A DNA stretch of 53,711 nucleotides. Source: a virus. Lineage: Duplodnaviria; Caudoviricetes. A program made the position numbers and the translations under genes. Every line of letters starts with the position of its first letter. Position 1 is the first letter of the stretch. This document shows positions 25,736 to 40,533 of the stretch, piece after piece. Under the pieces are notes generated by a model. It did no database searches. It had not been told where the DNA came from and was given only the letters and a program-made list of their open reading frames with translations. The DNA lies in the IMG/VR virus record IMGVR_UViG_3300017734_000008, positions 1-53,711 of that record. The stretch is one strand, 5' to 3'.

Positions 25736-26410
25736 ATGTCACTAATTAAAATAAACAAAAAATATTCTTATAAAAAACATAACAGATTTCAATCAGAGAC
25801 AGGAAGAAAGTATTTGGTTGATGAAGCTCCTGTACCAAGTGTAACAACAATTTTATCTGCTACAAAAGACAGAAAGTTTTTAGATGATTGGAGAAGAAGA
25901 GTTGGTCATCAAGAAGCTGACAGAATTATGAATAATGCATCTACAGTAGGTACTGAAATGCATCGAGTCCTTGAGTATTATTATAATGGTGAAAAATACT
26001 TTAATGAAACTCAAGAAGGAATTAAACCTAGAAAAATGGCTGAAGTCATAAAGGATTCTTTAAGAATAGACGAGGTATGGGGTAATGAGGTTTCATTAGC
26101 TTATAAAAAAGAATACGCAGGAACTACAGATCTAGTAGCTATGGCATATGGAAAACCATCAATAGTTGATTTTAAACAATCCAATAAACCAAAAAGGGAA
26201 GAATGGGTAGAAGACTATAAATGTCAGCTAGGTGCCTATTATTTAGCCCATAAAACGCATTACGGGCCCATAGAGCAGGGTGTAGTGGCTATTGCGACCC
26301 GAGACCTGCAATACCAAGAATTCAAGCTCTCAGAGCCTGTATTACACGAATACGCTGATAAATTCCTTGAGAGATTAGAGCAGTATAAAAAAGCAATGGT
26401 AAAAGGTTAA
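25736..26410 (+). CDS. PD-(D/E)XK exonuclease
   Basis: PSVTTIL, GT.MH, AGTTD, DFK, QL.AY. Confidence 0.88.
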   Translation: MSLIKINKKYSYKKHNRFQSETGRKYLVDEAPVPSVTTILSATKDRKFLDDWRRRVGHQEADRIMNNASTVGTEMHRVLEYYYNGEKYFNETQEGIKPRKMAEVIKDSLRIDEVWGNEVSLAYKKEYAGTTDLVAMAYGKPSIVDFKQSNKPKREEWVEDYKCQLGAYYLAHKTHYGPIEQGVVAIATRDLQYQEFKLSEPVLHEYADKFLERLEQYKKAMVKG

Positions 26411-27840
26411 AGTAGCCAATCTTTGGCTTTGTCACCTAAAGTTTTAGCAGATAGTTGAATCTTCTTCTTAAGAGCTTGGACGATTCGCTCGTCAATTGTG
26501 TCTTTTGCTATAATATCTATATAGACTACATTTTTAGTTTGTCCGATTCTATGAGCACGATCTTCAGATTGTAAACGAACTTCTAAATTATAATTGTTAG
26601 AATAATAAATTACATACTTTGCAGCAGTCAAAGTTAATCCATAACCACCTGTAGTAGGATTACCAACAAAGAATCTACATTTAGAATCTTTTTGAAAACG
26701 GTCAACGGCAACCATTCTATCTTGTTGTGATACTTCACCAAAAATAGATACTACAGATTCGCTTCCATATTTTTCACTTAGCTTTCCTATTATTTCATGT
26801 ATGTTATGAACATATGTTGCCCATATAATAACCTTCTGATCTGTTTCTTCTAATATCTCAAGCAGGGCTTTTAGTTTTTCATTATCAAATTGTATTATTT
26901 CACCATCATCACTTTTACAATACCCATTTGCAACTTGATGTAGTCTAAGTATTTCTGTCAATTGATTATGAACTGATATTGTTTCATTCTCAAATTTAGC
27001 TAATGCCTCTATCTTAAGTCTTTGATAAACTCTTCTTTGCTCGCCTGAAATCTCTATCTCTCTTTTTTGATAAATCTTTTCAGGAATATCTAGACACTCA
27101 TCTTTAGTCAATCTTAATGAAAAATCTTTAAGCTTTTGTTCTAACTCATCCAAATTAGTAAATCCGTCAGGCACCATAATAGCTTCACCTCTTGCTACAT
27201 AGACCTCATCAAAGGTGCAGTATCTATTCCTAAAAGCATAAAAGCTTTTAAATCCTAATAATGCTGGATCAAGGAAAGCACATTGTGTATAAAGATCTAA
27301 TGGAGATTTTGTTACTGGTGATCCTGTTAATATACGCCTCATACGCGCTCGCCATCTTAATGCTAAAATGTTTTTTGTTCGTTTTGCTTTTGGGTTTTTT
27401 ATGGTCGTGGATTCATCAATTACCATTATATTATTTGGCTGGTTAATTAAAAATCTATTACATTCATCCAATCCTTTTTTTGTAGACAACGCTTCTACAT
27501 TGATTAAAAAAAACTTTAATTTATTTTTTTCAGTTAAAAATTTTTTATATTGTTTTGGTTTATCAACTTTCCACGCAAACACAGATCTATCAATCTCTGT
27601 GGGTAAATGTGTGTCTATCTCATTTCGCCAAACTGTATAAACAGATTTTGGGGCAACAATAAGCGCAGCATCTATACGTTTTTTTAAAAATAGGTAACCA
27701 ATGTTGTCTATTGTAGTTTTAGTTTTACCCGTTCCCATCTCCATAAACAATGCATAAGTAGTTCTATCAGCTGATTCGGCTAATGCTTGTCTTTGATGTT
27801 CATAGGGTTTCGTCTTATAGGGGTATTTCCATTCAGCCAT
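26407..27840 (-). CDS. SNF2-family (SF2) helicase
   Basis: MEMGTGKT, DES, LTGSP, QSEDRAHRIGQ; start taken at MAEW. Confidence 0.92.
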   Translation of the reverse strand: MAEWKYPYKTKPYEHQRQALAESADRTTYALFMEMGTGKTKTTIDNIGYLFLKKRIDAALIVAPKSVYTVWRNEIDTHLPTEIDRSVFAWKVDKPKQYKKFLTEKNKLKFFLINVEALSTKKGLDECNRFLINQPNNIMVIDESTTIKNPKAKRTKNILALRWRARMRRILTGSPVTKSPLDLYTQCAFLDPALLGFKSFYAFRNRYCTFDEVYVARGEAIMVPDGFTNLDELEQKLKDFSLRLTKDECLDIPEKIYQKREIEISGEQRRVYQRLKIEALAKFENETISVHNQLTEILRLHQVANGYCKSDDGEIIQFDNEKLKALLEILEETDQKVIIWATYVHNIHEIIGKLSEKYGSESVVSIFGEVSQQDRMVAVDRFQKDSKCRFFVGNPTTGGYGLTLTAAKYVIYYSNNYNLEVRLQSEDRAHRIGQTKNVVYIDIIAKDTIDERIVQALKKKIQLSAKTLGDKAKDWLL

Positions 27841-27867
27841 ATCCAAATAACTTGTATATTTTTCTAT

Positions 27868-27895
27868 TTGACTTTGCAAGAGGAAAGTCTATAAA
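27868..27895 (+). promoter_or_regulatory. sigma70-type promoter of replication operon, overlapping a divergent helicase promoter
   Basis: TTGACT-16 bp-TATAAA. Confidence 0.65.
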
Positions 27896-37492: not shown

Positions 37493-37675
37493 ATGCAGAT
37501 GAGTTTATTTGATCATAGTCTAAGTGACGTAAATGAAATGAGTGGTATTGATCGAACTCATTTTATGAATGATATTTATTTAGATTGGCAAGCCTCCAAG
37601 AGTCTCCGACAAAAGAAAATGGAGACTTTTTATCTTGAGTTACTCAAACAACTTATTAAAGATTATGGGCACTAA
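37493..37675 (+). CDS. hypothetical protein
   Basis: ORF track; ATG lies in hairpin arm. Confidence 0.6.
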   Translation: MQMSLFDHSLSDVNEMSGIDRTHFMNDIYLDWQASKSLRQKKMETFYLELLKQLIKDYGH

Positions 37676-38072
37676 TATTGCGACAGAAATATTAAAAACT
37701 CATTTGAGATCTGAACATAGACTTTATCAAGCTATAGTTGTTCAAGCGTTTGAAGATTGTTTATATACTTTAGGTGGTAAGAATGAAGCTTATAATAAAA
37801 AAGAAGCTCATGAATGGTTTATGGCTAATGGTAAAGATTTTAGACAGATCTGTGATCTAGCTAATTTAGATCCCGATCATGTACACGGTAGGTACAAGTG
37901 GTGTTTAAACAATAAAGTGATTGTTTTTACAGAAATTCAATGTTATTGGATTGAGTATAAAAATGAATATAAGAAATATAGGGCCGTGGGCACTAAAGAA
38001 GAAAGAAAAACCATCAAAGAAAGAATTGACCAAATAAGGTTTAAACTTAAATTGAAGGATAAAAGAAAATGA
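37665..38072 (+). CDS. conserved hypothetical protein
   Basis: RL..AI..QA.ED...A..WF...DF..IC.LA.LDP. Confidence 0.75.
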   Translation: MGTNIATEILKTHLRSEHRLYQAIVVQAFEDCLYTLGGKNEAYNKKEAHEWFMANGKDFRQICDLANLDPDHVHGRYKWCLNNKVIVFTEIQCYWIEYKNEYKKYRAVGTKEERKTIKERIDQIRFKLKLKDKRK

Positions 38073-38269
38073 AAATTAAAATTTTAAAAGCATTAGAAGA
38101 TAAATACCATGCTAAAATTAGTGAGGCCGAGGCTACTTTAGAAATATACCTTACTAAATCTGTAGGAATTGGAGAGCACCCGCAACATATAGATGAAGCT
38201 GATAAACTTGTTGATACGATAGCGCAGAATGAAGAGAAGTTAGGTGTTATACATAGACTAAAACAATGA
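38069..38269 (+). CDS. conserved hypothetical protein (VGIGEHP family)
   Basis: VGIGEHP motif common in marine phages. Confidence 0.8.
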   Translation: MKIKILKALEDKYHAKISEAEATLEIYLTKSVGIGEHPQHIDEADKLVDTIAQNEEKLGVIHRLKQ

Positions 38270-38477
38270 AAGAATTAGTCATAGGTCTACTTATTTTAGT
38301 GAGTGGAGAAAAAATTGAGACAAGACATATTACTATTTACGAATCATGTTATACGTGGTATCAGAAGAACGTAGAAATGAAAGAGATAAAGACTACCTTT
38401 TTAGCCGAAGATCTTATCATTTGTATGAAGGCCAACGAGTCGTTGGTTTTATTTGTAGTGATAAAGAACCTAAATGA
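38266..38477 (+). pseudogene. small protein with apparent -1 frameshift at T-run 38398-38402
   Basis: -1 frame reads SRRSYHLYEGQRVVGFICSDKEPK* and ends in ATGA coupling. Confidence 0.45.
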
Positions 38478-38584
38478 GTATTAGAAAAAAAATTTGTGCT
38501 AAATTAAGATTAAACTGGATGAGAACCCTCTACATCGGTTTGGCCTGTTTGTGGTCTTTTTTAATTTATGTCCCCTTTAAATAA
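38474..38584 (+). CDS. 36-aa basic/TM peptide
   Basis: Hand translation MSIRKKICAK... Confidence 0.5.
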   Translation: MSIRKKICAKLRLNWMRTLYIGLACLWSFLIYVPFK

Positions 38585-38729
38585 AATTAACATTGCAGCT
38601 GTAAATTGGGAAAGAACGAAAGATCCGAAATATAAGAAAGAGTGGTATATTTTAATTAAAAGGTGGTCTGAGTCTATCCGAAAAAAACCCAAGCAAATAT
38701 TAGAGTACAAGTGGCCGCTGTTAAAATAA
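38568..38729 (+). CDS. 53-aa hypothetical protein (TKDPKYKKEWY)
   Basis: Hand translation. Confidence 0.6.
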   Translation: MSPLNKINIAAVNWERTKDPKYKKEWYILIKRWSESIRKKPKQILEYKWPLLK

Positions 38730-38759
38730 AAAAAGTAAAATCATCGAAATTCATAAGGT

Positions 38760-38861
38760 TAACTAAGATAGGGTAACATGTAATAACCTTTTCTAGGGGA
38801 AAAGATGTCGAGAGAGCATGCTACCCTATCGACCATAGTTATGTCATTGTTCCTCCGATCT
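38760..38861 (-). ncRNA. candidate small RNA 2
   Basis: Promoter TTGTCC-17-TATACT (38896-38868, minus); 14-bp stem with G-U valid on minus strand; no ORF. Confidence 0.5.
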
Positions 38862-38897
38862 GTCTACAGTATATATGGAAAACGGATAACGGACAAC

Positions 38898-38960
38898 GAA
38901 AAAAGGGCGCTTCAGTCTCCCTCCACGCCCTAAAGATAACAAGAAATGATGTTATATAAC
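38898..38960 (-). ncRNA. candidate small RNA 1 (about 62 nt)
   Basis: Promoter TTGATT-17-TACAAT (38995-38967, minus); ends in AGGGCG/CGCCCT hairpin + U-run. Confidence 0.55.
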
Positions 38961-39064
38961 GCTATAATTGTATAGTATTCGTTAATCTAAATCAACGAAG
39001 TAAAAAATCTACTATATAGATTATCTAGACCCCTATGCACTTTTTTTAGTCAGAGGTCAAAAGT

Positions 39065-39169
39065 GGTGTATCTGGTGTATCTGATGATTATAATTGTTGT
39101 ATATCAACACTTATAATCGATTTTAAGGTGTATCCGTAGGTGTATCCGTGGTGTATCTGGATACACCAC
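39065..39169. repeat. iteron-like GGTGTATCY array with palindromes (origin or packaging site candidate)
   Basis: Five direct copies (39065, 39074, 39127, 39139, 39150) plus one inverted (39159). Confidence 0.8.
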
Positions 39170-39318
39170 AATATCAATATTTCCTTGCGTAGTGCAAAAA
39201 TGTTAGTTTGGGTAACCTAGTCGGGGGTTAAAATAATCTATATAATAGAATTTGCGGTGGGCGGCAAATCTCAAGACATTGCTGAAGATGATCTTGATAA
39301 CGCCCGCCCCGTAAAATT

Positions 39319-39666
39319 ATGGTAATAGCTAAAACAATTATAAAAGCAGCAATCAAGAGAGCTAAGAAAAAGGCCGCTGCAACTAAAGGCAGGAAGCTTA
39401 CTAAAAGCTTGGATAAATACAATATTCATGCTGGTGGAGGTAAAGGCCCTGTACCTATTAAGAAACAATCATTACAAAAAAGCACATTAAGTGGTAGAAC
39501 TTATTCTATAAGTACCAATAAACTAAGCGCTAAAACAATGCTTGATATAGGTGGTGGTTATGGAACTACATCTACAGCAAGGTTTCAAGATGCAGTTAAG
39601 GACTTGATTGGTTTAGATAAGCTAAGTATAAGAAAAGCATTCAAAAGAGGGAAAGGAAAAAAATAA
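39319..39666 (+). CDS. very basic hypothetical protein
   Basis: Lys-rich, amphipathic N-terminus; TAATG coupling. Confidence 0.7.
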   Translation: MVIAKTIIKAAIKRAKKKAAATKGRKLTKSLDKYNIHAGGGKGPVPIKKQSLQKSTLSGRTYSISTNKLSAKTMLDIGGGYGTTSTARFQDAVKDLIGLDKLSIRKAFKRGKGKK

Positions 39667-39938
39667 TGAAACAAAAAAAGTTATTACTAGGTGGACTTCT
39701 ATCTGCAGGTATAAAATATGCTGCTAAAAAGTATATGAAACGAAGCGGCAGAAATATATCTAAATTAACTAAAATGCAGCCAAAACTCTCAAAAAACAAA
39801 AGAGCTGGTGCTAAACATGATATGGCAACCGCTATACAAATGCAAGGAACCAAAAGTTTTCTGAACCCTAAGGGCATGACAATGAAAGATGTAAATAAAT
39901 TACAATCTTATAAAAATAGACTACCAAAGAATTACTAA
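39666..39938 (+). CDS. basic protein with KKLLLGG leader
   Basis: TAATG coupling at both ends. Confidence 0.7.
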   Translation: MKQKKLLLGGLLSAGIKYAAKKYMKRSGRNISKLTKMQPKLSKNKRAGAKHDMATAIQMQGTKSFLNPKGMTMKDVNKLQSYKNRLPKNY

Positions 39939-40462
39939 TGGCATTAAAAGCAAAAGCACTTAGAACTATAGATGATTTGACTCCCAAACAAAGAAAGTTT
40001 GTAGATATACTTGTAGCGAACTGGGGTGAAATCACAAAAGCCGAGGCCTGTAAAAGAGCTGGTTATGAAGCAAAGAATGATAAGAATTTTTCCGATATTG
40101 GAAGTAGACTAACTTTAAGACGACACAATCCACACGTAGTAAAATATATGGATCAACAGCTTGAAAAAGCTAAGGCCAAATATGAAAAGGATAGACTGCG
40201 TAGATACAAAAGATTAGAAAAATATGCTGACAATGCATTTGAAGATAAACAATATGCGTCAGCTATAAATGCTGAGTATAGATCAGGACAATTAGCTGGT
40301 TTATATGTAGATAAAAAAGAAGTAAAAGTATCAGGATTGGAGGGTATGTCACGTGCAGAGCTTGAGAAGAAACTCACAGAGCTTTCAAACAAGATCGATG
40401 GTTTCAACGCCAAAACGATCGAAGTTGAGCCAGAGACAAAAAAATTATCTAGTAAGTCATAA
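39938..40462 (+). CDS. terS: terminase small subunit
   Basis: LTPKQRKFV...A..RAGY HTH; GQLAGLYVDKKEV. Confidence 0.8.
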   Translation: MALKAKALRTIDDLTPKQRKFVDILVANWGEITKAEACKRAGYEAKNDKNFSDIGSRLTLRRHNPHVVKYMDQQLEKAKAKYEKDRLRRYKRLEKYADNAFEDKQYASAINAEYRSGQLAGLYVDKKEVKVSGLEGMSRAELEKKLTELSNKIDGFNAKTIEVEPETKKLSSKS

Positions 40463-40533
40463 TTGGACTTCCTTCATTACTGTTTTTAACGAGGTGCATA
40501 ACGCTGATCTCAACGTAAACTTAGGCAAAATTA

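Follow-up and report, generated by a model that had tools for sequence, protein, structure and literature searches.

A minus-strand cassette in a gap of a pelagiphage-like genome

The window, that is, the whole 53,711-nt stretch of DNA analysed here, is a 53.7-kb virus record from IMG/VR that is classified as linear and ~89% complete, in which the + strand carries nearly all ORFs. Its large terminase shares 70% identity with the one from Pelagibacter phage HTVC023P, so the earlier guess, made from the sequence alone, that the DNA comes from a SAR11 phage is a reasonable one. A series of small + strand ORFs is followed by a 590-bp gap (38730-39318), to the right of which lie two small ORFs and then a small-terminase-like gene (39938-40462; phrog_51, 2.5e-8). 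The following features lie at this gap:

38967-38995, minus strand: P1, a sigma70-type promoter (TTGATT 38995-38990, 17-bp spacer, TACAAT 38972-38967)
38899-38960, minus strand: RNA 1, a predicted short RNA of ~62 nt (ends predicted; terminal hairpin and U6)
38904-38931, minus strand: GGGAGACUG hairpin, a 7-bp stem followed by T6 (38904-38899), a predicted intrinsic terminator
38868-38896, minus strand: P2, a promoter-like site (TTGTCC 38896-38891, 17-bp spacer, TATACT 38873-38868)
38839-38856, minus strand: GGAGGA Shine-Dalgarno sequence and start-stop mini-ORF ATG ACA TAA, kept in relatives
38760-38841, minus strand: bipartite leader stem (lower helix 38841-38836 / 38765-38760; 14-bp helix 38830-38817 / 38780-38767)
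38674-38754, minus strand: 26-codon ORF encoding a hydrophobic peptide, MNFDDF... (ATG at 38754, stop codon 38676-38674)
39003-39253, no strand assigned: conserved control block of inverted repeats, iterons and a palindrome, outside the cassette

Relatives were collected by scanning viral contigs with the small terminase; 165 related stretches were confirmed, and the best 80 of the 165 were kept as loci. The gap is conserved among them at the DNA level (blastn) and was aligned across 36 distinct sequences, leaving out L021, which carries a 600-nt insertion, while blastn of the gap against isolate phage genomes gave no match. No tRNA or tmRNA gene was found in the window, nor did any of the 27 window ORFs scanned against PHROGs match an RNA-polymerase family. 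According to the portion of PMC12753301 cited here, HTVC027P, an HTVC023P-type relative, has no RNA polymerase gene of its own and uses that of the host, a reliance that fits the host-type promoters at this locus; the abstract of the same paper describes this phage as lytic. One cited literature passage gives a figure of ~7.6% of viromic reads.

P1 precedes a predicted short RNA ending in a covarying hairpin

A promoter scan bore out the hexamers, positions and 17-bp spacers given for P1 and P2 in the preliminary description, although its wording "near-consensus" is too strong for sites that each match the consensus at 9 of 12 positions. The same scan returned 10 promoter-like sites in 37500-40500, as compared to 11.9 +/- 3.7 in shuffled sequence; the hexamers alone therefore prove nothing, and only conservation in relatives lifts them above chance. 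In 28 of 30 distinct relatives P1 reaches at least 9/12 at the corresponding alignment position, and it falls there into three sequence classes: TTGATT-17-TACAAT, TTGATT-16-TGaTATAAT and TTGCAG-17-TGTATAAT. The promoter is thus kept while its own sequence is replaced, as a functional promoter predicts.

RNA 1 would begin with a GTTATATAAC palindrome (38960-38951) and continue through a conserved single-stranded UUUCUUGUUAUC stretch into the terminal hairpin, with a predicted fold of -17.9 kcal/mol (z -2.6). We confirmed the GC hairpin at 38931-38904 and the T6 run at 38904-38899 that had been described, with the predicted end falling 2 nt before the second -35. Five of the 7 pairs in the stem are G-C and the T6 run follows, as in a GC-rich intrinsic terminator; with a loop of more than 8 nt (13 nt, itself structured), the hairpin escaped a simple terminator scan. 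Across the 28 distinct window-clade sequences of alignment A1, 100% of the cells in this stem are paired and 4 of the 7 stem pairs show double changes, a covariation reached by 0 of 500 shuffles. G-U pairs outnumber A-C pairs by 48 to 0 in the relatives, which identifies the minus strand as the RNA strand. The hairpin is followed by a U-run of at least 5 in 24 of the 28 sequences, by a weaker run in 3 and by TTTTCTTTT in 1. In L137 and its like, a second hairpin with U6 has been inserted behind the first, suggesting that termination is selected here.

The covariance model of RNA 1 (R1) finds one copy in the window, and further copies of the RNA only in closer relatives. The preliminary description had named conservation of the promoters and stems, and covariation, in relatives as checks: P1 is so conserved, and both stems, that of RNA 1 and that of the leader described below, covary. 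Taken together, the conserved promoter, the covarying hairpin, the frequent U-run and the terminator hairpin added in one lineage show a first unit with the behaviour of a genuine gene for a short, terminated minus-strand RNA.

The terminal hairpin belongs to a family found across marine phages

The hairpin that ends RNA 1 is one copy of a GGGAGACUG hairpin family with a stem of 7-11 bp, a 3x3 purine internal loop, G.U and G-C pairs and a GAGA tetraloop; in the window copy the internal loop is GGA/GAA and the tetraloop GAGA. The R1 model also matches Pelagibacter phage HTVC027P (E 1.5e-4), in which a hairpin sharing this loop core occurs 7 nt before the primase ATG, together with TATAAT and a GTTATAAC palindrome. 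Two scans of viral contigs with exact 14-mers gave at least 124 instances, at least 81 of them with a flanking stem of at least 7 bp, and at least 112 instances, at least 83 of them with such a stem. As a control, the first 14-mer was sought in bacterial and archaeal contigs, where 121 instances included 5 with flanks of at least 6 bp, none of them family-like.

We aligned 54 distinct hairpins (A4): that of the window, 20 from the window clade and 33 others. The window copy aligns column for column with the other 53. Because only hairpins with a stem were taken, the percentage paired is biased, though the covariation is not; double changes occur at 8 of 9 stem pairs (106 cells), and the score is reached by 0 of 500 shuffles. 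The apical module, consisting of the purine internal loop, the G.U and G-C pairs and the GAGA tetraloop, is invariant across the alignment, and the apical 8 nt never vary.

Among the first-scan matches listed, 75 of 81 stemmed hairpins lie 5-26 nt upstream of a long ORF, the complete ones encoding 497-548 residues, and all nine tested representatives of these ORFs are phrog_21866 primases. The window's own primase (29234) is likewise of phrog_21866, AEP type (Pfam AEP-TOTE 1.7e-12), and has no hairpin leader, so that the usual family position is not the one occupied here; the window hairpin instead lies 53 nt upstream of the mini-ORF. Four hairpins among the first-scan matches listed carry a U-run and precede a VRR-NUC-like gene. 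Of the five loci inspected for context in the second scan, one has the hairpin before a T7-type primase/helicase gene (phrog_239), two have it between a major head gene and a tail gene, and in two it ends a minus-strand gene run with a U-run. In T7-like contigs, hairpins between head and tail genes or before primase/helicase (L304:600, L333:366 and L362:3150) indicate that the family crosses phage groups, and in phage 023Pt_psg01 a variant abuts the start codon of peptide deformylase.

At least 5 T directly follow 20 of the 164 family hairpins among the matches listed; the other 144 have no U-run, so termination is not the primary role of the family, of which the window clade has the terminator version. 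The preliminary description had also pointed to Rfam, but neither RNA has a family there: Rfam 15 gave no match over the whole window at the gathering score, and relaxing the cutoff to E up to 10 added nothing but eukaryotic miRNA/snoRNA noise far below threshold. The HTVC027P copy of the hairpin likewise matched no Rfam family. A literature search with the loop string returned only unrelated primer or gene matches, and a search on HTVC023P and pelagiphage small RNA brought up no publication dealing with non-coding RNAs or micro-proteins of such phages. This uncatalogued family, which marks primase leaders and module boundaries, is a candidate for RNA family libraries and a route to a binding factor.

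A conserved iteron block adjoins the cassette

Upstream of P1, the block at 39003-39253 is bounded by outward-facing inverted repeats (39004-39033 / 39224-39253), 30 nt each with a TAATCTATATArTAGA core, of which the window has only two copies. Between them lie six GGTGTATC iterons (39065-39167), the block holding 6 of the 7 window copies against 0.75 expected, and an AT-rich palindrome (39086-39118). No other non-coding block of the lineage is as widely conserved: its identity is 84-90%, as compared to ~75% for the flanking genes. All iterons of the distant relatives L079 and L080 read GGTGGGTC instead, and such change in concert suggests a co-evolving DNA-binding protein, be it a packaging-site, origin or late-promoter regulator. 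The block may be functionally linked to the cassette.

Where block and cassette adjoin, at 38999-39008, most relatives carry a variable insert of 70-100 nt, of which the window has the shortest version; the insert is of two kinds, with GCAAC/GTTGC hairpin repeats or with GGGGGTAATGCATAATGC. Relatives also carry a tandem duplicate of a TAGACGGACGAAT motif that overlaps the P1 spacer.

Hairpin and iterons could together constitute a replication origin, the RNA or a displaced DNA strand being recognised by the phage primase. There are parallels in lambda oop, which lies beside ori, in the R-loop origins of T4 and in the ssi hairpins of RSF1010. The association of the hairpin family with two unrelated primase types, AEP (phrog_21866) and T7 (phrog_239), would agree with this, as would the position of the window hairpin, away from the primase gene and 70 nt from the block of iterons, palindrome and outward repeats, and the concerted change of the iterons in distant relatives. 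However, primase-leader hairpins have no iterons nearby: repeated 9-mers occur in 16 of the 124 instances listed, and none of the listed 9-mer repeats near family hairpins matches the window iteron motif. The hairpin is found between head and tail genes as well, the GC skew of the window is uniformly positive with no origin signal, and the iterons, lying as they do directly before the small terminase, might just as well be a site of packaging. The combination of a GNRA tetraloop and tandem purine pairs is, moreover, a motif typical of RNA, which counts against this reading. We consider an origin at this site distinctly unlikely.

P2 precedes a structured leader and a micro-peptide gene

The -35 of P2 lies within a conserved direct repeat, TTGTCCG TTATCCG (38896-38883). 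P2 reaches at least 9/12 in 12 of 23 distinct relatives, and most of the others have, at the corresponding place, a TGnTATAAA-type extended -10 without a good -35. The leader that follows comprises 107 nt ahead of the 26-codon ORF. GGAGGA-N3-ATG-NNN-TAA is present in 25 of 29 distinct relatives, and since a Shine-Dalgarno-like motif is found in ~20 of 45 sampled genes of the phage, the mini-ORF site is plausibly a strong ribosome-binding site. The mini-ORF stop codon falls within the 5' strand of the lower helix.

As had been described, the only non-canonical pair of the 14-bp helix is a G-U on the minus strand. This helix is paired in 99% of cells, with double changes at 6 pairs and a G-U to A-C count of 35 to 0 in the relatives; the lower helix, of about 5-6 bp, is 86% paired, and its 2 pairs with double changes come from one lineage only. 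The stem encloses an invariant CU-rich loop, CUCUCUCGACAUCUUUUCCCC. In the predicted leader fold the mini-ORF start region pairs with the peptide start region, and the outer long-range helices of this fold show no covariation in the relatives.

According to the preliminary description, no protein-coding gene follows either promoter. For P2 this is wrong: 12 nt after the 14-bp stem a conserved 26-codon ORF begins, its start codon 5 nt beyond the leader stem and without a Shine-Dalgarno site of its own. Among 16 distinct 81-nt coding sequences the peptide frame has a pN/pS of 0.30 and zero internal stops, as compared to 0.52-1.48 and 6-51 stops in the other five frames, so that an open frame under purifying selection is found in the peptide frame only; three different stop codons are used among these sequences. 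The gene is present in 30 of the 33 relatives that cover the site (three of the 36 sequences end before it). Of the aligned sequences, 27 of 36 carry the window-type peptide, and a variant, also of 26 residues, is found in L053, L056 and L050; alignment A3 contains 19 peptide variants. A single membrane helix is predicted, with one hydrophobic stretch, an acidic N-terminus and no basic residue. The peptide matched 0 Pfam families at E up to 1, and a peptide-based scan of viral contigs returned 27 loci, all of the same lineage and context and thus with no sign of mobility. By these coding tests, the ORF is a conserved gene for a predicted 26-residue membrane peptide that gene callers have overlooked.

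The proposal of two ORF-less small RNAs is consequently upheld in part: the first unit is RNA-like, but the second is the structured leader of a peptide gene. Leader and peptide are not strictly tied to each other. L033, L025, L016 and L009 lack the mini-ORF and keep the peptide, and L055, L057 and L042 show the reverse, keeping mini-ORF and stem with the peptide absent. Any coupling between the two is therefore not obligatory, and the latter three relatives suggest that the leader might also have a role of its own.

The peptide gene overlaps the tail of a + strand ORF of 53 residues (38568-38729) by 56 nt; the overlap is 32 nt in L033 and L049. Close relatives also preserve the tail of this ORF, IRKKPKQ..YKWPLLK, so coding on both strands is possible at 38674-38729. 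Two relatives have an insertion that separates the leader stem from the 26-codon ORF and contains a further small hydrophobic ORF, of 20-25 residues (L038:486-657 and L061:3402-3569, on the minus strand of the locus in each case).

If the 26-codon frame were incidental, both units could be trans-acting regulatory small RNAs without ORFs. Promoter-like sites and covarying stems in both units are consistent with this, RNA 1 looks typical in its U-rich single strand, terminator hairpin and U-tail, and three relatives, as noted, keep mini-ORF and stem without the peptide gene. This account has to contend with an ORF that stays the same length in 30 of 33 relatives through three stop codons, selected in that frame only, and with the lack of any terminator found between leader stem and ORF. 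Phage targets for RNA 1 are not above chance either: complements within the window number 6 against 11.5 expected for the loop and 13 against 17.8 expected for the single-stranded stretch. We regard it as improbable.

A type I toxin-antitoxin-like pair, in which the peptide is a membrane toxin and RNA 1 the antitoxin, acting through its G-rich loop on the CU-rich leader loop, is an attractive reading that fails the test of complementarity, and we think it improbable as well. A hydrophobic peptide of 26 residues falls within the limit of 60 residues for such toxins, and it is accompanied by a long structured leader and a ~60-nt RNA gene alongside. The pairing open to the two RNAs is, however, only a 6-7 bp loop-loop match, GGGAGA / UCUCUC, which is possible in all relatives and lies in two invariant loops. 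Duplex energies of RNA 1 with the leader are within the shuffle range for most relatives (z -0.6 to -2.3) and go beyond -3 in L053 and L056 only, with no extended complementarity. The RNA 1 loop is equally conserved in phages without such a peptide, so its conservation can be explained without pairing to the second RNA (RNA 2). Basic residues are absent from the peptide, none of the Pfam toxin families matches it, and we know of no described type I system with this tandem, same-strand layout. The lytic lifestyle described for the HTVC023P-type relative HTVC027P in the abstract of PMC12753301 also speaks against a toxin-antitoxin role.

We also considered full-length duplexes between RNA 1 and the leader; these pairings ignore the RNAs' own folds and are not significant for most relatives, and they are not counted as support.

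That the locus holds nothing but chance promoter-like and hairpin-like sequences in an AT-rich gap, as the shuffle-level frequency of promoter-like sites and the absence of an Rfam match might suggest, is extremely improbable, being already contradicted by conservation and compensatory changes in dozens of relatives whose flanks diverge.

RNA libraries give a weak hint of transcripts over the cassette

Eight RNA-library runs share 5-14% of the sampled words with the window, and the four of them aligned to it all consist of Logan contigs. Assembled contigs of one metatranscriptome lie over 38813-39115, and one RNA-library contig of 151 nt matches 38766-38916 exactly. These contigs carry no information on strand, ends or level, may derive from DNA carry-over and give no meaning to the parts left uncovered; they are a weak hint.

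Proposed organisation and function of the cassette

We propose, with a probability of roughly 0.6, that 38995-38674 is one minus-strand cassette consisting of a terminated RNA 1, a leader with mini-ORF and stem, a peptide gene, translational coupling between the two reading frames, and a hairpin recognised by a protein. The conservation, strand, folds and coding status of these elements are shown by comparison of the relatives. From them, we infer where transcripts end, how the peptide is translated and that a factor binds the hairpin.

In this HTVC023P-type pelagiphage lineage, the cassette is most likely read by the host RNA polymerase. Transcription from P1 would yield the ~62-nt RNA, stopping at the intrinsic terminator, whose stem-loop is a copy of the widespread phage RNA hairpin with the loop RRR-GG-GAGA-CU-GRR. 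Elsewhere in marine phages this hairpin sits in primase 5' leaders or between gene modules; here it has gained a U-run, with which it could both release a free short RNA and gate read-through from P1. Either P2 or such read-through may then produce a message with the 107-nt leader, the 5+14-bp stem and the 26-codon gene. As the mini-ORF stop codon is within the lower stem, ribosomes on the mini-ORF would melt that stem, and the peptide start codon would probably thereby be exposed. The conserved apical part of the hairpin may serve as a recognition site for a protein of phage or host.

A bolder extension, which we put forward tentatively and hold to be unlikely, is that the GGGAGACUG hairpin docks one conserved factor that times replication genes across several groups of the most abundant podoviruses in the ocean, and that it has here moved out of the primase leader and become a free terminated decoy or origin RNA by the iterons, coupled to a start-stop-gated micro-peptide. 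Were this so, the factor could be the primase or another replication protein, or else an RNA-binding protein or nuclease of the SAR11 host, and the locus would be a three-part RNA/peptide switch without a described counterpart.

Among known systems, the proposed cassette recalls promoter-proximal control in lambda, where the terminator tR' behind PR' and the 6S RNA is released by Q. Both have a host-type promoter with an intrinsic terminator within ~60 nt, so that a short RNA would be made by default and downstream genes would need read-through; both have a -10-like AT-rich palindrome in the first transcribed bases and repeated motifs in or beside the promoter spacer (TAGACGGACGAAT in relatives). 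The cassette differs in having no identified Q-like gene, a 26-codon gene downstream instead of a late operon, P2 after the terminator, and a terminator whose conserved complex loop is common to non-terminating hairpins. Lambda OOP RNA and P22 sar RNA are short phage RNAs whose synthesis opposes the prevailing direction of transcription. RNA 1 resembles them in its size (~60-80 nt), in its own promoter and intrinsic terminator, in opposing the flanking operons and in lying beside a control or origin-like region. Unlike them, it is intergenic, with no annotated gene opposite it; overlap with a + strand ORF (56 nt) is confined to the peptide message.

The loci hok/mok/sok, tisB/istR-1 and zorO/orzO share with the cassette a tiny hydrophobic peptide, a long folded leader and an adjoining short RNA, and its upstream small reading frame could, like mok, couple translation. 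The cassette has neither the antisense overlap nor the complementarity of at least 18 nt of hok/sok-type loci, its units are in tandem on one strand, and the peptide lacks basic residues. A minimal ORF at the foot of a stem, with the next start past the 3' side of that stem, is also found in the CaMV 35S leader and in bacterial start-stop elements; by analogy shunting or reinitiation of ribosomes may occur here, although, unlike the CaMV 35S leader, the cassette is bacterial and four relatives without the mini-ORF keep the peptide. In recurring at gene boundaries, the hairpin family is like the T4 and T7 boundary hairpins and RNase III sites (CUUCGG; T-phi after the capsid gene). Its 14-nt invariant apical module, however, goes far beyond the needs of a stable tetraloop, its stems fall short of the length of a classical RNase III site, and the family is not in Rfam 15.

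The analysis thus provides three testable objects, namely a comparatively supported short phage RNA, a hairpin family and a 26-residue membrane peptide, which bear on gene timing in phages that depend on the RNA polymerase of a host that has very few regulators. Of most value are the hairpin family, which is uncatalogued, and the micro-peptide gene, which had been hidden.

Further minus-strand genes in the window and in HTVC023P

The sole large minus-strand gene of the window, at 26407-27879, is helicase-like (phrog_62, 3.4e-129) and breaks the one-directional gene order. In HTVC023P, the gap upstream of the small terminase is a different one of 1.2 kb (L144:1600-2900), with no copy of RNA 1, other repeats of the TTTCCTAG type and a minus-strand gene of 132 residues that has a terminator of its own. 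Ahead of the small terminase, then, this phage again has a minus-strand unit, with different content.
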